Part shown: piece after piece, positions 7,188 through 16,908 of the stretch
How positions within the stretch are numbered: the first letter of the stretch is position 1
Layout of the letters: every line of letters begins with the position of its first letter
Assembly: GCA_963810095.1 (NCBI GenBank)
Contig: CAWEMM010000010.1
Location: 96,001 to 160,000 of the forward strand
Source of the DNA: an uncultured Chloroflexia bacterium
Lineage (GTDB): Bacteria; Chloroflexota; Anaerolineae; CG2-30-64-16
Length of the DNA stretch: 64,000 nucleotides
Reading direction: 5' to 3'
Notes under the pieces: generated by a model
Seen by the model: the letters and a program-made list of their open reading frames with translations, nothing else
What the model was told of the DNA's origin: nothing
The model's database searches: none
Program-made: the position numbers and the translations under genes

Positions 7188-7619
7188 ATGGAAGAGGAAT
7201 TGTTGGCCGTGCTCGACGCGCACCTGAAGAGCATCTGGGCCGGTGATCTGACGGCGTATCGAGCGACGACCGCAGAGGACGTCACGTTTTTCGAGTGGTA
7301 CATCAGCACCCAGCGCATCGATGGACTGGACTTTCACCTGCGTGAGACCGCGGCCCAGTTCCGGGCGGCGGAGGACCGGCGGCGTTCGGGCCAGCGTTAC
7401 GAGATCGAGCACGAGGTGCTGCAGCCCAAGATTCAAGTGTACGGCGACGTCGCGATCGTCACTTATACGCTGCTGATGCGCTACACGTCGTCCGACGTCG
7501 TGCGGCATACCGAACATAACGAAACACGGGTGTTTCACCGCCGGGCCGCGGGCTGGCAGCTCGTGCACTGCCACAAGTCGCCGATGTGGCCCGCCCCACA
7601 TGCACCGTCAGGCAGGTAG
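7188..7619 (+). CDS. NTF2/SnoaL-fold protein resembling the CaMKII association (hub) domain
   Basis: DGLDFH and ETRVFHRRAAGWQLVHCHKS resemble the hub signatures; SD GGGAGG precedes ATG 7188. Confidence 0.8.
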   Translation: MEEELLAVLDAHLKSIWAGDLTAYRATTAEDVTFFEWYISTQRIDGLDFHLRETAAQFRAAEDRRRSGQRYEIEHEVLQPKIQVYGDVAIVTYTLLMRYTSSDVVRHTEHNETRVFHRRAAGWQLVHCHKSPMWPAPHAPSGR

Positions 7620-7623
7620 GTCC

Positions 7624-8387
7624 ATGTCACAACTTGCGCTTATCACGGGCGCGTCGAGCGGCATCGGCGAGGAGTTCGGCCGGCAGCTCGCCGCCCGGGG
7701 ATACGATCTCGATCTTAACTGCGCGGCGTGCGGAGCGACTGGCTGCTCTCGCCACAGAGCTGACGCAAAAGCATGGGGTGCGGGTGGAGACGCTGCCCGC
7801 GGATCTCTCCATTCCCGATTGCATTGCGGCCGTGGCAGCACGGGCGCACGCGGGCGACGTCGACCTCCTGGTGAATAACGCCGGGTTCGGCATCGGAAAG
7901 AAGTTCGCCCACGCAGGGCTCGGCGGACAGGAGGCGATGCTGTCTGTTCATATCCAGGCGCCCATGCAGCTGATGCACGCCGTCCTGCCGGCCATGATCG
8001 AGCGCCACCGAGGCGGTGTGATTAATGTCGCCTCGCTCGCGGCCTATTTCTCACTTCCGACCGAGGCCAATTACACCGCGACGAAGGCATACCTGGTGCG
8101 CTTTTCGCGGGCGGTCCACGGCGAAGTGCGGCGCACGGGAGTGACGGTGCAAGCGCTCTGCCCCGGCTTCACCGTGTCTGAAATGCACATCGATCGCCAG
8201 ACGGGCGCAATTCAAGCGGCAGGGTCCTGCGTTTCTCTGGTCAGAGGCAAGCGAGGTTGTCGGCGCGTCGCTGCATGCGTTCGATCGCCGCAAGTCGCTC
8301 TGCGTGCCCGGAGGAATCAACAAGCTGGTTTACTGGATCGGGAAGCTCGGCGTGGCCGATGTCTTTCTGCCGTACTTCCTGCGCTAG
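7624..8387 (+). CDS. Short-chain dehydrogenase/reductase (frameshifted in this assembly)
   Basis: TGASSGIG, NNAG and YxxxK (YTATK) are spread over adjacent frames. Confidence 0.8.
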
Positions 8388-8395
8388 CGGATTGT

Positions 8396-8424
8396 TTGAC
8401 GCCGGCCCGCTCCGCTTCTATAAT
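8396..8424 (+). promoter_or_regulatory. Sigma70-type promoter for the PqqD/rSAM unit
   Basis: TTGACG-17 nt-TATAAT. Confidence 0.75.
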
Positions 8425-8494
8425 TATCGAACCTGCTCGGCAAGGGCTGCCGCAAAATCCCGCCGTTCATCGACCGGTCACTCAGGAGTAGTAG

Positions 8495-8776
8495 ATGTCC
8501 TCTCGCGATTTGCGCACGCCCGTGCGTAACCCTGCGACCGCTTCACGCGTCTTCAGTGGTGAGGCCGTCATTATCACACCCACAGAGAACACTGTTCGGA
8601 TGCTGAATGGGGTGGGCTCGCGCATCTGGGAGCTGGTTGACGGTGAGCGCACGGTCGAGCAAATCGGGGCCGTGTTGGCGGCCGAGTACGATATTCCGGC
8701 CGGCGACGCGACCGACAGCGCCGGACGCTTTGTCGACGAGCTCCTCGCCAAGGGGCTGCTCGAGCTCGCGGCCTGA
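8495..8776 (+). CDS. PqqD-family / RiPP recognition element protein
   Basis: 93 aa; LNGVGSRIWELVDGERTVEQI...FVDELLAKGLL winged-helix pattern; SD AGGAG. Confidence 0.92.
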   Translation: MSSRDLRTPVRNPATASRVFSGEAVIITPTENTVRMLNGVGSRIWELVDGERTVEQIGAVLAAEYDIPAGDATDSAGRFVDELLAKGLLELAA

Positions 8777-8791
8777 AGCCGGCGGAGCTGC

Positions 8792-9969
8792 ATGGACGCT
8801 TTCATCCCCTTGGAGTCCGTAACGACCGGCCCGCGCCCGTTCGAGCGTGACTACGCGGGGTGCGCGCCGGTGGAGGCGCCGGCCAACGGGTACGACACGC
8901 TGATGGCGCGGCTGCGCCGAGAGCACGTGCCCTACTCGGTCTTGTGGGAGCTGACGCACCGCTGCAATCTGAAGTGCGTGATGTGTTTCAACGAGGCGCT
9001 GGCCGAGCAAGAGCTGAGCACGGACGAATGTCTCGGCGTTCTGCGCCAGCTTGCCCAAGCCGGCGCGCTCCGGCTGACCTTCACCGGCGGGGAGATCCTG
9101 ACACGGCCCGACTTTTTTACGATTGCGCAGGCGGCGCGCGAACTCGGCTTTGCGCTCGACCTCAAGACGAACGGCACGCTGATCACGCCGGAGACCGCCG
9201 TCAGAATCGGCCGGCTCGCACCGGTACAGGTCGATATCAGCCTGCTCGGGGCTACCTCTGAAACCTTTGATGCGTTGGCCGGGATGCCGCACACGCTCGA
9301 CCGTGCGCTGCGGGGTGTCGGGTTGCTGATAGAGCAGGGCGTGCGGGTTAAGCTCAATACCCTGTTAATGACAGCGAATTTGTCAGAACAGCGGGCCATG
9401 GTTGACGTTGCCAATAAGTTGGGTGTATACTATGAGTCGGTTCTCAAGGTATCTCCGACCGATAGTGGACAGCCAAAAGCCGAGCGACACCAGTTATCGC
9501 GCGACCAGATGGTTGAGGCTGTTGTCGCGGACCAAACGCCCTTTGTTCCCAAGCCGCGCTCCGAGGAATCACGCACCTGTGGTGTCGGGTTATCGTCGTG
9601 CCTGATTAGCCCGTACGGCATCGTTTATCCCTGTATTGAGTTGCGCGTGCCCGCGGGCGACCTGCGCAAACAGAAGTTCAGCGAGATCTGGCGTAGTGCG
9701 CCGGTCTTCGTCGAACTTCGCGAGCGGCACGTCTTCGGCAACCTGCCCGATTGCCAGCGCTGCCGCTGCAGACGTACTGCGAGGGCCGGTGCGCAGGTAT
9801 TGCGCAGAAGAATCACGGCGACCTGTACGGCGGGCATACGCTGGCGTGTTGGCAGGCGCAGGCGCGCTTCATGCAGCAGCATCCCGGGGCGCCCGTCCCG
9901 ACGACGCCGTTGCTCGAACGGCAGCAGTCGTCGGACGGCAAAGCCAAGAACGGTGATATTCACGAATGA
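8792..9969 (+). CDS. Radical SAM/SPASM peptide maturase (1-nt frameshift at about 9764)
   Basis: CNLKCVMC and TGGE; SPASM C...C...GIVYPC, and after frame repair CQRCPLQTYCEGRC...C (Cx2Cx5Cx3Cx18C). Confidence 0.9.
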
Positions 9970-10062
9970 CCGTTGTAACCGGCGGGCTATCGACGGTCGG
10001 TCGTCATCTGTGTTGTAAGCTGGCAGCGTTATCGTCGACGAGATTCGTCGGGGAGGTAAGTC

Positions 10063-10278
10063 ATGGATCAAGCCCTGCAAGTCGCCCATCAATCTGCGCC
10101 TGAGACTCGCAAGCCCTGGGAAGAGCCCTGCATCGTGCTCGAACGCCTGCTCCTGGTTTCTGCGCAGGACGGGGGCGGGAAGGGCGAGTCCGGCATCTTC
10201 AATCCCGGCCAGAGCGGACCCGGCGGCCCGAGCTTCATGGGCCCCCTCGGCACATCCGGGGGTAGCGGCAACTGCTAA
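10063..10278 (+). CDS. Putative RiPP precursor peptide (71 aa)
   Basis: Strong SD GGGGAGG; KPWEEPCI leader-like motif; Gly/Ser/Pro-rich C-terminal half ending in Cys; lies next to PqqD and rSAM. Confidence 0.75.
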   Translation: MDQALQVAHQSAPETRKPWEEPCIVLERLLLVSAQDGGGKGESGIFNPGQSGPGGPSFMGPLGTSGGSGNC

Positions 10279-10303
10279 CCTCAGAATCCTTAAGCCAACC
10301 GCC

Positions 10304-13300
10304 TTGAGTTCAGAGTCGCGGGCATGGAGTAGTCTATTGAGAGCGCCTTCGCTGCGGTGGCTTTCCGCATTGCTAGTCGTATTCGGTCTCGTACTGCCCA
10401 GTCAGTCTGTTTTTGCCGGGCCTACCGAGACCGAATTTTTGTTTGAGGTCACAACGCCTACCTTTAGCATCGGGTCCGATAACATAACCGTTCCCGGTTA
10501 TGCGTCCAACGATGCCCCCGGCGCGCCTGCCCTGCCCCTTCCAGGTCAAAACCATCGAACTCCCCTTCGACGGTGACTGGAAGGTCAGCTATGAACTCCT
10601 CGAAAGCCAGACTCTGCCCGAGAAACTCGCTGTGCGCTCGGTTCCGGTCGCAGACCTGCCGGTCGAAGGTCCGCAAAGCATCCAAAGCCGGCCCGATTGG
10701 CCCAGCGAGGCGCCCGTGGTGACGCGCCGGACCCGGCCATTTACGGCCACGACACGTATTACCCAGAGGCCCCGGTTCAGCCCGGCACAGAGGGCTGTCA
10801 ACGCGGCAGGCGCCTCCTGCCCGTCCGCGTGTTCCCGTTCCAATATAACCCGGCCGCGCAGACGGTGCTGTACCACCCCCACGTCAAGGTGGTCGTTCGT
10901 GTGAGCGGCTCGGCGCAGGGCTCGTGCAGCCAAGGAGCGGCGCCCAGCACGGGTGTTGCCGGCGCGGAGGCTATCGGGGCAGAGGCGGGTGCCCTATTGG
11001 TACGCACTGCGGAGCGCGGCATGTACGGTCTGACGTACGCCGATCTTCAAACCGCAGGCGTGCCGCTCGACACGGTCGATCCCGCAAGCTTTCGCATGAC
11101 GCTGGGAGGCCAGGCGGTTCGCCTGCAAGTGCAAACGCAGACGGCCGGCCACTTCGCGCAGGGCGACCTGGTCATCTTCTACGCCGAACCCTATACGGGC
11201 CGCTGGTCTACGACGAACGTCTATCGCTTCAGTTGGGGCCCCGACGCCGCACCGGCTGAGTCGCGCATGCTGACACGCGGGGCAGCCAAGACCGGGCCGG
11301 TTCTGACCACGGTCATCCAGTCACTGCACGTCGAGCGAAACTACGACTATTACAGCACCTACCCGGCGTCCGTCGAGGCCGACCACTTTTTCGACGCGCC
11401 ACTCAGCCTTTCGCAGAGCACGCCGTCCGCGTCCGCATCATACGATCTCGCGCTGGACGACCCCCTGCAGACGGGTACGGTCAAGATCAGCGGGTTGGTT
11501 TACGGTGGCAAGAGCCAGGCTGCGAATCCCGACCAGTCGTTCGAGCTCAAGCTGAACAGCCAGGCTGCCGGGGTGCAGCAATGGGACGGGCGAGTCGGCT
11601 ACCAGTTCTCGACGAGCGTGACCGCGTCGGCTCTGCTGCCGACCGGCAATAAGCTCTCCGTGACTGCCGCTCTCTCGCAGCTACCCGCACTGACCGACTA
11701 TTACATCTATCCCGATAGCTTCGACCTCCTGTATCCTGCATCGAGCGAGGTGGAGACCGACCGCGTCTTTGTTGCGGGGCTCGACACTAGCGCCACCGCG
11801 GTTCAGATGCAGTTCACCGGTTTCACCGGCTCCACCGTGCGGGCTTACGACGTCCGCGACCCCAAGTCCCCGGTCATACTCACAACGGTCGAAGCAGGTG
11901 CGTCGGGCCCGCCCTACAGCGTCAACGTGTGGGACTCCTGGAATGCGTTGGACAGCGCGCCGCGTATGCGCTCACCACGGACGCCGCGCTTCTCAAGCCG
12001 GCGTCGATCGAACGCGACTGGCCCAGCAACCTGAAGTCAATGACGAACTCGTACGATTACATCGCCATCGTGCACCGCAGCCTTTCCGAGCCCATTCAGC
12101 CGCTGCTCGACCGGAGGGCCCGGCACGGGCTCCGGGTCACGAAGGTTGACGTGCAGGACATCTACGATGAGTTCAACTACGGTATGCCGCATCAGCAGGC
12201 GATCCGCGACTTCCTGAACTATGCCTATCACTACTGGAACCAAGGCGAGGCGAATCGTCCGCGCTACGTCCTGCTGGTCGGCGACGGGCATTACGATTTC
12301 AAGAATGTGTTGAACAAGCCGGTGCCGAACCTCGTGCCGCCGTTCCTGATCAACGTCGATCCGTGGATCGGCGAGACTGCCGCCGACAACCGCTTTGTCT
12401 CGGTGGATGGTGCTGACGACTATCTGCCCGATATGGCCATTGGCCGAATACCGGCGTGGAATGCTGCGGACGTAGCGAGCGTGATCGCTAAGATCGTGGC
12501 GTATGAGGACGAAAATGCGCCACCGGATGCTGCCTGGCAGCGGCGTGCCGTCTTTGTGGCAGACGACGAAGAGACCGGCGCCGGCAACTTCCACGCCTTC
12601 AGCGACGAGATCATCGCCAACTGGTTGCCGCCGGCCTACGACAGCTCTAAGATCTATTATAACCCGAACAATATGCCTGTGGGGGTCGGATACACGACTG
12701 TCAGCGACATGAAGACCAACGTCAAGCAGGCCTTCAACCAGGGCGCCCTGCTGATGCAGTGGTTCGGTCACGCGTCCAAGTTCAGATGGGGGTCGTTCAA
12801 CAACCTGTGGAAGGTGTGGGATCTGCGAACGCTCGACGCCAACGTGCACCTGCCCCTGGTGCTCTCATACTCGTGCTGGTCCGGTTACTTCGTGAACCTT
12901 TTCGGGTATACGGACGGTTCGCCGGATGGCTCGGCATGGTATCAGTCGCTCGGCGAGACGGACTTGCTTCAGCCAGGCCGTGGAGCTATCGCTGACCTTT
13001 CGCCGAGCGGGCAACACGTCGGGCAGGCGCTGCAGGTGCTGAACCAGGGACTGACGAAGACGATCTTCCAGGATCGGGTCGTCGGCTTGGGCGAGGCCGT
13101 GGACGCCGCCAAGCTGTACTACTTCAGCCACAGCACCGCGTATCCTGACGTCATCGACACTTCCATCCTTTTCGGCGATCCCACGCTTAAGCTGCGTCTG
13201 CCATACCGCGCCTCTGGGCTCTCCCGAGCCGCCCGATGTCGACATCGCGCCGAAAGACGCGGCTTCGGTCCACCTCTTCTGGCGGCATCTGTCTGAGAAC

Positions 13301-13588
13301 AGCGGCTACGAGGTCTATAGGGCCGTGCGTCCCTACTTCCAACCCGGCGACAGCGGCGTCAACCCCATCGCCTACATCGACGCCGCGCCCTACGGTCCTG
13401 ACTCAGAGATTCCATACGACGACTCTGGGTACGATTACGACCCCGCTGGGGGTACGCAGCCCCGGGTACAGGTCGTTGGTGACGTGGCCAACAACTACTT
13501 TTGGGGTGTCGAGGGCCGCGCCGGCACCGGCTCGGGCATCATTAACTGGGTAGGCGAGTTCGACTTCGCGCTCACGAAGGGCAATTAA
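10304..13588 (+). CDS. Secreted gingipain-like C25 cysteine peptidase (about 4 frameshifts in this assembly)
   Basis: Signal peptide; propeptide-like GAPALP and FPFQYNP; YVLLVGDG, PDMAIGRIP, catalytic GH (12769) and SC (12874), LFGDP; C-terminal domain ends VGEFDFALTKGN. Confidence 0.85.
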
Positions 13589-13633
13589 AGGTTTAGGCCG
13601 GAGAAACCGCCCCGGTTCCTCCGGCCTAAACCT
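13589..13633. terminator. Hairpin closing the C25 operon
   Basis: 15-bp perfect inverted repeat aggtttaggccggag/ctccggcctaaacct directly after the stop codon. Confidence 0.7.
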
Positions 13634-13985: not shown

Positions 13986-14258
13986 TTAGCGCACAGTGCC
14001 CCGGCGCAGCAGGTTGACGATAGCCAACAAAACAACGGCGCCCAAGAGGGAGACCAACAGCCCAGAGAGGCTGAAGTCGCCCTGATTAATGTTGCCGCCG
14101 CCGATCAGCGGGTTGAGAATCAGGCCGGCCAGGAAGGCGCCGACGATACCGACGATGATGTTCAGCAGGGGACCCTGCTGCGCATCGGTCCGCATGATCA
14201 TGCTGGCAATCCAGCCCAACAGACCACCCACGATAATCCACACGATGAAGTTAATCAT
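13986..14258 (-). CDS. GlsB/YeaQ/YmgE family small stress membrane protein
   Basis: WIIVGGLLGWIASMIM...NIIVGIVGAFLAG...SLLGAVVLL. Confidence 0.9.
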   Translation of the reverse strand: MINFIVWIIVGGLLGWIASMIMRTDAQQGPLLNIIVGIVGAFLAGLILNPLIGGGNINQGDFSLSGLLVSLLGAVVLLAIVNLLRRGTVR

Positions 14259-14487
14259 GCTCTCTACTCTCCTTATGTTCGACTCTCGACTCACTTACGA
14301 TACTTCGCTTGAGCTCACTCAAGCTTATGTGCCAAGTATACTGCGCTCGCCAGGCTTTGGGTATCAGCAAATGCCGTAGCGTTTCATCGGCATTGCGCCT
14401 ACTCCCGTGTCAGACAAATCTTACATGTGCCGGAAAACAAATCGACCGGGCGCCGCCCGGTCGATTTGTTTTCCACCCCGCTTGTTA

Positions 14488-14877
14488 TCAAGCCTGCAAC
14501 CCGTACTGCGCCACCCGGTCCAGCAGCTGCTCGAACTCGCTGGACTTGTCATAGAAATAGTCGGCTCCGGCCTTCTGACACTCCGAACGATAGCGTTCGG
14601 TCGCGTGGTTGGTTAACATGATGACCTTGGTCTCCGGATGCGTGCCCTTGACTTTGCGCAGGACGTCAATGCCGTTTTGCACAACGCCAACGCCCGGCAC
14701 CTTGATATCTAGGATTGCGATGTCAGGCTCGTGCTCGTCGACCAGGCGCAACGCGGACGCGGCATCCTCGGCCTGAATAACATTCTCGACCGAGTCAATC
14801 TCTGCCAGCATGGCCGCAAGCAAGCTGCGCACCACGGCGGCGTCGTCCATGACCAGCACGGTGAAGCGTTTCGACAT
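14488..14877 (-). CDS. Single-domain response regulator
   Basis: VLVMDD, PDIAILDI, VIMLT, GADYFYDK. Confidence 0.85.
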   Translation of the reverse strand: MSKRFTVLVMDDAAVVRSLLAAMLAEIDSVENVIQAEDAASALRLVDEHEPDIAILDIKVPGVGVVQNGIDVLRKVKGTHPETKVIMLTNHATERYRSECQKAGADYFYDKSSEFEQLLDRVAQYGLQA

Positions 14878-15023
14878 CCGATTACCAAAATCCATCATGC
14901 ATGAATAATAAGCCCGTCTATCCCTTAGAAGTAGCAGAAGAACACTGATAAGACAATCATCTCTCGTCCTATCGGCTTGTCCGGTTTTGTCCGACAATGC
15001 ACGCGGCTTGTGCCTTAGATGGC

Positions 15024-16908
15024 CTAGGCGGGCTGATGAGGGGGCGGGCTTTCGATGCTGTACTGCCTGAGCGGCAGGCGCATCTCGACCAGCACGCCCT
15101 GGTCGGGCCCGTTGAGCACGGTGACCGAACCCCCCAACTGCCGCGCTCGCTCGCGCATCCCGACCAGCCCCAGGGAGCGGCGCCCGGGGTCGACCTGTAA
15201 GCCCTTGCCATTGTCCAGCACCTTCAGAACGAGGTCGCTGTCCGTCGTGACCATGTCCACTCGCACTTCGGTCGCTTCCGCATGCCGGGCGATGTTAGTC
15301 AGCGCTTCCTGCAAGACACGGAAGGCCGCGGTGCTCATATCCTTCGACAAGCGCTCTTCGACCACTTCGGTTTCGAGCGTTACTGCCAGGCCCGTCCGTT
15401 CGCGAAACTGCTGCAGTTGCCATTCGACCGCAGCCTCGAGGCCGAAGTCGTCCAGGATGCCGGGGCGCAAGTCGGACAGCGATGCGCCGGATTGTCTTGA
15501 TCGTTTCGTCGACCAGCGCGAAAGTCTCGCTGAGCCGTTCGCCCACCTTCTCCGGATTCGCGCGTTGCCAGCCGCTCGATCGTGCGCAGCTCCATCTTGA
15601 TGGCCGTGAGGAGCTGGCCAAGCTGGTCGTGAATCTCGCGCGAGATGCGCATGCGCTCCTGTTCCGTGCTGCGCATGAGTTCCTCGGAGAGCCGGCGCAG
15701 GTCGGCCTGGGTCTCCAGGAGCTTCGTGTTACTGATCTGCAGTTGCTCGGTGCGCTTGATGACCCGGCTTTCCAGCTCCGCGTTACAGCTGCTGCATCTG
15801 GTTGATCAGCCGGGCGTTCTCTTCGTCGCGCTCCTGCAAGGCGGCGGCCATCGAGTCGAAGGTCTGCGCCAACTGCCCCATCTCGCTGCTGTCGCCTAGC
15901 AGTCCCACCCGGGCCGAGAAGTCGCCGGCGCGCATCCGCAGCGCCGCATCGACAACCCTTTCGGTGCGACGGACGATCATGACCTCGGCGCTAATCCAGG
16001 CTGACGCCAGCGCGGCCAGCCCAATGACGGCGAGGCCGCCCAGGCTGAGGCGCAGCATCCGATCGACGCCCGAGTAGATGTAGTCTGTCGTCAGGCCGGC
16101 AAACGCATACAGATCGGGGTCCGTTCGCGAGCCGACGGGCGTAAACGAGAAGAGCCGCCGGTTGCCGCTGAGGCCGGGCGCGACGATCCAGCCCTCCTTT
16201 TCGCCTTTGGCAGCCTGGAAGATGGCGGTGCCGGCAACATCCTGCCCGACGAAGCGCTCCGGGTCGGGGTGGCGCAGCACGACGGTCCCATTCCGATCGA
16301 TCAAGATCAATGAGGCGTACTGGTAGAACTGGTTGGCGCCGATGCGCTGGGCGAGCGCGTCAACATTCAGGCCCGCGCCAATGACGGCTTGCACATGGCC
16401 ATTCGCTTCCAGCACCGGCAGCCCCACGGCAAGATTGGGGCGGCCCGAGGCAGGGCCGATTTGTACATTACCCACGGCGAACGTCTTGCTGGCGATGGCC
16501 CGCTCAAAATAGAGCTGTCCGGCAGCGGAGATCGTGCCGGACAGCGGGCGCAGCGACGGCCACGCAGCGGATCGTTCCGTCCGGTGCGGCCACACTCAGT
16601 CCCAGGAACTGCTTGCTCGTGTTAAAGAATGCCTGGAGCCGGTCTGAGCACGCGGCCGGGTCGGCGCCGGTGATCTCGGGCGTTTGGGCCAACCAGGTGA
16701 GCGAATTCTCTGTGTTGCTGATGACCTCCTGGTACTGCGTCGCCAGCAGTTGAGCCAGCGCCATGCTCTCGAGCCGGGCGCTCTCCTCGGCGCGCGTGCG
16801 CTCGAAGGCTGCAATCGTGATCACCAGGACAAAAGCGGGCAGGAGCGCGAGGAAGATGACCGCCACGAGACGGGTGCGCAGGTTGGGCAGGATGTGTCGG
16901 GTTAGCAT
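15024..16908 (-). CDS. Cache-HAMP-HisKA_3 (NarX-type) sensor kinase (frameshifted)
   Basis: TM-Cache-TM-HAMP; ERMRISREIHDQLGQ, RPGILDDFGL, QEALTNIARHA, LGLVGMRER across several frames. Confidence 0.85.

Follow-up and report, generated by a model that had tools for sequence, protein, structure and literature searches.

The 64,000-nucleotide stretch of DNA analysed here (the window; positions 96,001 to 160,000 of contig CAWEMM010000010.1, from an uncultured Chloroflexota bacterium of the class Anaerolineae) carries between positions 8396 and 13633 a compact cassette of four genes, encoding a RiPP (a peptide made by the ribosome and modified after translation) recognition element (RRE), a radical S-adenosylmethionine enzyme with a SPASM domain (rSAM), a short precursor peptide and a C25 peptidase. 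This cassette is a real, conserved pathway of Anaerolineae, and the form that combines an rSAM with a C25 peptidase is widespread in that class. It seems rather likely that the operon is one half of an Anaerolineae pathway of the type known for the linear polyphosphorylated peptides (LPP) of Bacillota (Popov et al., Nat Commun 2026; PMC13381572), to which an rSAM/SPASM enzyme has been added and which has a secreted, PorU-like C25 peptidase as its partner. What appears to be new, as far as sequence comparison can tell, is this form with rSAM and C25; the LPP parts are already known.

The identities of the genes, their conservation and their co-occurrence can be read directly from the genomes. 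Orthologues of the rSAM (57-67% identity) were found in 12 of 40 relatives. Among 401 sampled genomes of the class, 46 matched the peptide profile and 65 the rSAM (E ≤1e-40); 36 of these 65 hold orthologues (at least 51% identity), and 35 of the 36 match the peptide profile as well, the lone exception being a genome whose contig stops 105 bp past the rSAM gene. The rSAM loci that were fetched contain the peptide in 34 of 35 cases and keep the order RRE, rSAM, peptide, C25. Where at least 1 kb of sequence lies beyond the peptide, a C25 gene follows it directly in 29 of 31 rSAM loci; in the other two (L021 and L024) another secreted protein follows and then the contig ends. Peptide and C25 are paired in at least seven families of the class, and the pairing holds away from the rSAM as well: in L017 the two lie 7 kb from it, and in L037 and L038 the pair is found on its own next to a Wzz gene, the rSAM being encoded on a different contig of the genome concerned. 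All named records are Chloroflexota, Anaerolineae or Anaerolineales metagenome-assembled genomes, and in a 401-genome sample of the phylum the peptide profile was found only in this genome and one other of the same family, with none outside the class. The small reading frame and the C25 gene thus both keep their place next to rSAM orthologues, so that this refuting condition of the original prediction does not hold. That prediction took the RRE, the rSAM/SPASM enzyme and the short reading frame together for a RiPP system, and the view of a genuine RRE-dependent peptide-modification system is supported.

The precursor consists of 71 amino acids: a leader (residues 1-34) with the motifs W19-x-x-P22-x-I-V-L-E-R28 and V32-S-A34, and a core (Q35-C71) that ends in G-P-L-G-T-S65-G-G-S-G-N-C71. 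It has no match in Pfam or NCBIfam. The 15 copies from neighbouring genes align well, and 236 related clusters are found in a large protein collection, every one of them hypothetical or unnamed and without a Pfam domain. Among the best 120 sequences of these 236 clusters, on which all conservation counts for the peptide are based, the leader follows the pattern R-[KQ]-x-W-[EQ]-x-P-x-I-V-L-E-R-x-L-x-V-S-A-Q, in which 120/120 keep the W, P, E, R and L. A variable spacer rich in proline and glycine separates it from the C-terminal motif G-F-[LIM]-G-P-L-[GS]-[TA]-S-G-G-x-G-x-C, which is followed by zero to six residues and in which the serine is kept in 120/120 sequences and the cysteine in 119/120. 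Before the junction of A34 and Q35, V, A or T at position -3 and A or G at position -1 are conserved, a pattern compatible with a site of the signal-peptidase type.

The cysteine tail of the peptide and the rSAM come and go together, and this link, too, is observed directly. We inspected all 11 genomes that match the peptide and lack an rSAM orthologue. The resulting 11 rSAM-less loci comprise one in each of 10 genomes plus the second locus of G124, a genome that carries both kinds; the eleventh genome (G026) holds a distant type with two cysteines. The rSAM-less loci have the gene set (NTP_transf_5), HprK-like, RRE, peptide, C25, with the kinase in 8 of 11 and the C25 in 9 of the 10 that could be judged. 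None of their 12 peptides has the cysteine tail, as against 36 of 37 peptides at rSAM loci, where the sole cysteine-less peptide is a truncated second copy in L020. Leader and (F)LGP[LF] motif are retained in all 12, which end a few residues further on, at a serine or threonine or shortly after it. On a quick tree of the catalytic domains of the C25s (maximum likelihood, 41 rows, midpoint root), the cassette C25s fall in one group of 38 with 97% support in the approximate likelihood ratio test (SH-aLRT). Within it the rSAM-less C25s fall at four places, grouped by host family, so that the presence of the rSAM requires four parsimony changes, at least two of which are forced by branches with at least 95% support. 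Two paralogous C25s of this genome (contigs C7 and C6) lie outside the cassette group, and two copies without a peptide partner lie inside it (C10:292990 of this genome and the tandem second copy in L025). Since rSAM and cysteine tail are gained and lost together, we take Cys71 as the target, and the rSAM most likely acts on it. With a SPASM enzyme facing a single conserved cysteine, a thioether from Cys71 would be the simplest guess, at roughly even odds. A more distant rSAM subfamily (38-42% identity) accompanies peptides with a similar leader and two cysteines (Table 1).

The rSAM protein itself has the CxxxCxxC motif and the full seven-cysteine SPASM pattern, some of the SPASM cysteines being invariant among 17 sequences and the rest kept in at least 90%. 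Its closest solved chains are PqqE (103.6 bits), SkfB and SuiB. All 25 of the curated NCBIfam models listed for it score below their cut-offs (among them PqqE, MftC, AlbA, SkfB, StsB, ScmE/F, AhbD and NirJ), the best being AhbD with 158 bits against a cut-off of 500; MftC reaches 126.4 of 265 bits and PqqE 100.5 of 381. Comparison with the Scm, PqqE and MftC models, which the original prediction had singled out, thus places the enzyme in no characterised family.

Four known systems were considered and rejected for this locus. SynChlorMet (ScmC, D, E, F) fails on the scores of ScmD (35.6 against 100), ScmE (84.8 against 400) and ScmF (74 against 400) and on there being one rSAM here, not two. 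PQQ and mycofactocin were set aside because PqqE and MftC score below their cut-offs and the flanks contain neither pqqB/C nor mft genes, and a lasso peptide because there is no lasso cyclase.

The RRE is a discrete protein of the PqqD family, similar to lasso-B1 and LppB; no PqqD-type NCBIfam model matches it at its cut-off. Its best solved relatives are the lasso RRE TbiB1 (4.9e-9) and then two PqqD-family chains from 2026, with PqqD itself at 1.4e-4. The gene is present in 35/35 rSAM loci and in 10/11 rSAM-less loci. A predicted complex of the RRE with peptide residues 1-42 scored 0.60, against 0.00 for the best of three controls, with contact agreement between runs of at least 92% and a partner pLDDT (predicted local distance difference test) of at least 59. 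Of 157 solved complexes, 116 reach the pass mark used, as do 2 of 215 mismatched pairs; scores of 0.60 or less were obtained for only 18 of these 157 and for both of the passing mismatches. Solved RRE-leader complexes resemble the prediction, so the pass may mirror this likeness rather than prove binding, and the predicted complex lends weak support to the binding of the peptide leader by the RRE.

The link to LPP comes from the genes that accompany the cassette in relatives. An HprK-like gene is found in 19 of the 35 rSAM loci, usually directly upstream of the RRE; other frequent neighbours are an NTP_transf_5 gene, an S26-like gene of about 160 codons and a Wzz/tyrosine-autokinase gene, and glycosyltransferases together with a priming sugar transferase (Bac_transf) often lie beside the cassette. 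In this genome the Wzz, NTP_transf_5 (PF14907, 4.2e-29), S26-like and HprK-like genes sit together on contig C9, without an RRE or peptide. The operon is therefore not “self-contained,” as had been claimed, since relatives join the cassette to these very genes. The S26-like protein has no Pfam match at 0.001 and was identified by profile and fold only: it carries invariant G-x-S-M-x-P, H-R and G-D motifs (Ser, His, Asp), its profile matches SEC11C (4.7e-4), SEC11A, bacterial signal peptidases and LexA, and its predicted model (pLDDT 91.7) matches the folds of SipA, SpsB, LexA and SEC11C, that is, the S24/S26 fold.

According to the main text of the LPP paper, LPP clusters consist of LppS (SpI-like, i.e., like signal peptidase I), LppB (an RRE), LppK (HprK-like), LppN and LppD (MsbA-like), with LppA as a further member; they lie in capsular polysaccharide loci, and their leaders have a motif of the YxxPxVL type (Popov et al., 2026). 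In that account, LppK adds several phosphates to Ser3 of the core, and leader cleavage by LppS (catalytic S29, H68, D93) requires LppB. LppN appears in Supplementary Data 2 under the domain name NTP_transf_5. LPP as there described and our cassette have in common a discrete RRE of the lasso type, a [Y/W]xxPx[LVI] leader motif (W and P in all of our peptides counted above), an HprK-like kinase that on our side is a candidate, an NTP_transf_5 protein, a soluble S26 peptidase of the archaeal/ER type with Ser/His/Asp, and a location in polysaccharide loci beside a tyrosine autokinase. The main text of the paper does not contain the terms “radical SAM,” “SPASM,” “C25,” “gingipain” or “Chloroflex.” Peptidase_C25, Radical_SAM and TIGR04545 occur once each in Supplementary Data 2, where their cluster of origin could not be told. 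With so many of its parts matching the LPP pathway as far as published there, the description of the system as an undescribed RiPP class was too strong.

Some further observations concern relatives of these genes. A second system in this genome, on contig C6, consists of a frame-broken HprK-like gene, an RRE of the PqqD type and a cysteine-free peptide of 42 aa whose leader contains K-P-Y-E-E-P; a secreted protein of the alpha-amylase family follows. Its leader has a tyrosine where that of the window has a tryptophan, and a difference of this kind separates co-resident pathways in the main text of the LPP paper (PMC13381572). Directly after the HprK-like gene on contig C9 lies a gene for a 1923-aa protein of the alpha-2-macroglobulin type (a protease-trapping family). 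In three related loci of one family, RRE and rSAM are separated by a gene whose 574-aa product is predicted to have seven membrane helices and matches nothing in Pfam, with a priming sugar transferase and a glycosyltransferase just upstream.

The C25 peptidase has a strong Peptidase_C25 domain (270.8 bits against a cut-off of 23) and a weak Propeptide_C25 match. Its N-terminus reads as a Sec signal peptide, both in this sequence and in the consensus. The His and Cys that align with the pair of gingipain R, which we take to be the catalytic residues, are invariant in 13/13 sequences. The best solved relative is PorU (6za2, 1.6e-13), ahead of the gingipain RgpB (6.6e-7), and the only NCBIfam matches are models of the PorU type, the score for the PorU equivalog being 189.1 bits against a cut-off of 420. 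C25 paralogues without peptides are encoded elsewhere in the genome, at C10:292990 and on contigs C7 and C6. The statement in the original prediction that C25 peptidases are not established RiPP enzymes agrees with our literature searches: those combining radical SAM, C25, gingipain or PorU with RiPPs gave no paper on the rSAM + C25 form, and those on Anaerolineae RiPPs and rSAMs, on C25 sorting in Chloroflexi, on SynChlorMet and on HPr kinase with PqqD, rSAM and nucleotidyltransferase gave nothing relevant. A paper retrieved for PorU with radical SAM deals with PQQ in Ktedonobacteria and has no bearing on this system.

Several features of C25 proteins and of secreted proteins in these genomes deserve mention in their own right. 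The last 90 or so residues of the window C25 form a domain that ends in V-G-E-F-D-F-A-L, has no Pfam or NCBIfam match and recurs as a separate small gene immediately after the C25 in three loci of close relatives. A C-terminal tag, [YFW]-L-P-[LVIMS]-[ILVM]-x-[RKQH], is found at the end of 28 long reading frames of this genome, where chance would give 0.7; two C25 paralogues, some of the cassette C25s and several proteins adjoining peptide genes likewise terminate in this YLP-type tag. A scan of three of its bearers with NCBIfam found no sorting-motif model for the tag. A second kind of tail has three parts, P-N-A-[VL], about 12 residues and then a membrane helix with an arginine cluster, and resembles a sortase-type sorting signal. 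One bearer of this PNA-type tail is an ExeM/NucH nuclease beside a C25 paralogue and another lies beside the small system on contig C6. When nine tagged neighbours were compared with NCBIfam (E up to 1), no named sorting-motif model was found, only a generic membrane tail of the LPXTG type.

Combined, these genes suggest the following pathway. The leader of the precursor (W19xxPxIVLER28) would be bound by the RRE of the lasso-B1/LppB type, which would hand the precursor to the rSAM/SPASM enzyme for a reaction on the tail that bears Cys71; the likeliest such reaction would be a thioether between Cys71 and a residue of GF[LIM]GPLGTSGG. The RRE would also present the precursor to the enzymes encoded on contig C9: the HprK-like kinase could phosphorylate a serine (the invariant Ser65 being the candidate), the LppN-like NTP_transf_5 protein could act on the precursor as well, and the soluble, SEC11-like S26 peptidase, the presumed counterpart of LppS, would cut the leader after V32-S-A34. 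Once exported, the peptide would be met outside the cell by the C25 peptidase, in a context of polysaccharide and cell surface, and be either trimmed or transferred. For this scheme we infer all of the chemistry, the export route and the substrate of the C25. An alignment of the leader motifs puts the LPP cleavage site (as given in PMC13381572) after A34, and a cut at this point by the S26-like peptidase is the more likely reading. Removal of the leader by the C25, as first proposed, is less likely than such an LppS-like cut, given the LPP precedent as published there and the conserved residues at -3 and -1; with an S26-like leader peptidase already present, the C25 is doubtful in that role. 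Instead, it may cut near the GF[LIM]GPL motif, which is common to all variants and is unaccounted for by the other enzymes, or it may treat the peptide as PorU does its substrates, either transferring it or taking it as acceptor.

A number of points weigh against this reconstruction. The HprK-like orthologues match HprK_rel_A and ScmC at 5e-7 to 1e-12, far under the curated cut-offs, and only about a dozen loci showed the S26-like gene. The peptide would have to reach a secreted C25, yet it lacks a signal peptide and no exporter is linked: there is no ABC_membrane gene on contig C10 or within 100 kb of the module on contig C9, and no MsbA-like exporter occurred among the cassette neighbours scanned in relatives, a scan that took in part of the reading frames of these loci. 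Core position 3, the serine phosphorylated by LppK in the LPP account of PMC13381572, is glycine in 101 of the 120 sequences, so that any phosphorylation site here is only a guess. The nearest curated or solved relatives of the rSAM (AhbD, NirJ2, MftC and PqqE) make no thioethers, which is why a thioether is given only an even chance. The related genomes are not independent, and the locus counts therefore overstate the support. Finally, two of the frame breaks in the C25 gene of the window (near 10545 and 11960; see below) fall outside the public contigs with which it was compared.

What the C25 does is the point on which the alternatives differ most. It could be the leader or final protease of a secreted bioactive peptide, an antimicrobial or a signal, in the manner of NisP, in which case the polysaccharide context would be incidental; we consider this unlikely. 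Extracellular removal of the leader after export is established for class I lanthipeptides, and the Sec signal peptide, the invariant catalytic pair and the adjacency of peptide and C25 at loci with and without the rSAM all fit such a role. Set against this are the LppS-like leader peptidase that forms part of the system, the want of a conserved exporter or immunity gene among the neighbours scanned, and the stretch between leader and C-terminal motif, which is a variable spacer with no conserved core.

Another possibility, and in our view an improbable one, is that the C25 is a PorU-like transpeptidase and that the modified, possibly phospho-glycosylated peptide, on or with exopolysaccharide, is the acceptor or anchor for surface proteins. 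The greater closeness of the C25 to PorU than to RgpB and its exclusive NCBIfam matches to PorU-type models speak for transpeptidation, as do the location of the cassette in polysaccharide loci (Bac_transf, glycosyltransferase, Wzz/tyrosine kinase), the presence of an S26-like peptidase already available to take care of the leader, and the fact that peptide genes, orphan copies included, adjoin large secreted proteins with C-terminal tags (Table 1). Yet the score stays far below the PorU equivalog cut-off, the window C25 has no tagged neighbour, and the enrichment of tags is modest (four PNA-type tails in 657 kb of loci as compared with four credible ones, or six raw, in the 6.1 Mb genome). 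A fuller version of this idea, in which a cross-linked, phospho-glycosylated peptide exported with the exopolysaccharide machinery would serve as the anchor by which the PorU-like C25 fixes tagged surface proteins, strikes us as a long shot. If it were true, this would be an anchoring system of RiPP origin in Chloroflexota, a phylum in which we know of no equivalent.

There is very little to suggest that the C25 is a mere neighbour, sharing a cell-surface island with the cassette without either acting on the other: peptide-less C25 paralogues do exist, and two such copies (C10:292990 and the tandem copy in L025) nest in the cassette clade, but the adjacency persists through rearrangement, through loss of the rSAM and across the families noted above, and in L017, L037 and L038 the peptide travels with the C25 and not with the rSAM. 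The reading we prefer thus remains an LPP-type pathway with an added rSAM and a secreted C25 partner.

The layout of the window agrees with the operon as first described. All of the reported elements (promoter-like site, RRE, rSAM/SPASM, peptide, C25 and hairpin) are present in the sequence (Table 1), and the near-consensus promoter, the four co-oriented genes with gaps of 15 to 93 bp and the terminal hairpin are all confirmed, the gaps being 15, 93 and 25-61 bp. Promoter-like sites number two across the 6-kb region as against 1.4 expected from shuffles, a count that is not significant by itself; of 16 related loci that begin with the RRE gene, however, 8 have a site matching at 10 or more of the 12 positions no further than about 330 nt upstream of it. 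Ribosome-binding sites of the GGAG type precede the starts of the cassette genes, and a GGAGG or GGGAGG box is found at 9 of the 14 related peptide genes listed. None of 200 shuffles folds as well as the hairpin; with its T-run on the minus-strand side, the hairpin may in addition terminate the convergent gene at 13986-14294. A response regulator gene and a histidine kinase gene lie just 3' of the cassette; the pair is syntenic in L015 and is found between rSAM and peptide in L017. This pair may regulate the cassette.

The reading frame of the rSAM is broken once (near 9763) and that of the C25 four times internally (near 10545, 10726, 11960 and 13206). We compared the window with short-read contigs from four public metagenome runs, which are 95-100% like it and cover the breaks at 9763, 10726 and 13206. 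They differ from it by a single nucleotide at each of these and at 10313: an added G at 9763 (one public contig) restores the cysteine-rich SPASM frame of the rSAM, an added C at 10726 (one public contig) and the loss of a nucleotide at 13206 (two runs) repair the C25 frame, and the nucleotide missing at 10313 (three runs) lies 5' of the likely C25 start at 10340. Unrelated genes are broken too, among them the upstream neighbour of the cassette, a short-chain dehydrogenase/reductase (SDR) gene at 7586-8491 that is divided between two reading frames, and also the HprK-like gene of contig C9. Since all three of the covered breaks are mended and unrelated genes are affected as well, the breaks look like consensus errors of the source assembly (16 contigs, 88.5% complete), not gene decay. 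That the five breaks across the rSAM and C25 genes are genuine and the cluster is a decaying pseudogene is hardly credible in view of the independent contigs that mend them and of the broken SDR and HprK-like genes, which fit errors in a 16-contig assembly.

Table 1. Positions of the cassette, its companion genes and related features. Plain positions refer to the window; C and L labels mark contigs of the same genome and loci, respectively.
Feature	Position	Strand	Remarks
Sigma-70-type promoter-like site (TTGACG, 17 nt, TATAAT)	8396..8424	+	11 of 12 consensus positions
RRE gene, PqqD family, 93 aa	8495..8776	+	Pfam PqqD 1.1e-16
Radical SAM/SPASM gene	8792..9969	+	Pfam Radical_SAM 4.7e-19, SPASM 4.2e-10; one base short near 9763
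Precursor peptide gene, 71 codons	10063..10278	+	GGGGAGG box 7 nt 5' of start
C25 peptidase gene, about 1080 codons	start 10304 or 10340 (10340 likely), end 13588	+	Peptidase_C25 2.9e-80
C-terminal domain of the window C25	13325-13588
Hairpin closing the operon	13590..13632	strand-neutral	20 pairs, -37.1 kcal/mol, z -6.85
Response regulator and histidine kinase genes	14488-16595	-
Wzz, NTP_transf_5, S26-like and HprK-like genes	C9:638003-642085		companion module
S26-like peptidase gene	C9:640850-641248
HprK-like gene	C9:641305-642085		frame-broken
Alpha-2-macroglobulin-type protein	C9:642141-647912 (L042 12141-17912)
Second system (HprK-like, RRE, 42-aa peptide)	C6:848292-849640 (L044 6242-7639)
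574-aa membrane protein	L053 11148-12875; also L057, L067
Distant two-cysteine-type loci	L026 7692-7907; L027 2569-2730; L075		S26-like gene directly follows in one genome
C25 C-terminal domain as a separate small gene	L014 12570-13076; L015 4280-4843; L020 92-862
Peptide genes beside tagged secreted proteins	L017, L020, L021, L025, L029, L030, L033, L037
YLP-type tag in related loci	L020, L021, L022, L029, L030, L035, L058, L059, L077
PNA-type tail proteins	C6:843057-843782; C9:557680-558669; C9:559116-559832; C10:296131-299865; loci L017, L025, L033, L037

The LPP-type reading matters in several ways. It would extend to Chloroflexota a pathway that the main text of the LPP paper describes as restricted to Bacillota (PMC13381572). 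The rSAM step, gained and lost with the cysteine tail, amounts to a natural experiment on the target of the enzyme. The literature searched holds no earlier report of a C25 or PorU-type peptidase as a RiPP partner, and the constant link to polysaccharide loci and to a secreted peptidase points to a function at the cell surface or in the matrix. As the operon is not self-contained, expression work needs the kinase, transferase and S26 peptidase that are encoded elsewhere.

Among known systems, the cassette has a free RRE, a full-SPASM rSAM and a short precursor in common with PqqD/PqqE, SkfB, SuiB, CteB, MftC and ScmD/E/F; it differs from the PqqE-type maturases in its scores below the cut-offs and in having no pqqB/C or mft genes, and the single conserved cysteine of the peptide suggests a different reaction. 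With PorU, which serves type IX secretion as its C25 sortase, the peptidase has in common the His/Cys pair and a large, multi-domain secreted architecture; it is set apart by its score (189 bits against 420), its Chloroflexota host and a small peptide as its constant partner. In the lasso peptides paeninodin and pseudomycoidin, as outlined in the review PMC8498205, an HPr-kinase homologue phosphorylates a serine and a nucleotidyltransferase adds hexoses in an RRE-dependent manner; our system has no lasso cyclase or B2 peptidase, and has an rSAM and a C25 in addition. Closest of all is LPP itself, and what distinguishes the cassette from LPP as described in PMC13381572 is its Chloroflexota host, the additional rSAM/SPASM enzyme, the cysteine tail of the peptide, the secreted C25 partner, the lack of a linked MsbA-like exporter and, in this genome, the splitting of the genes over two contigs.

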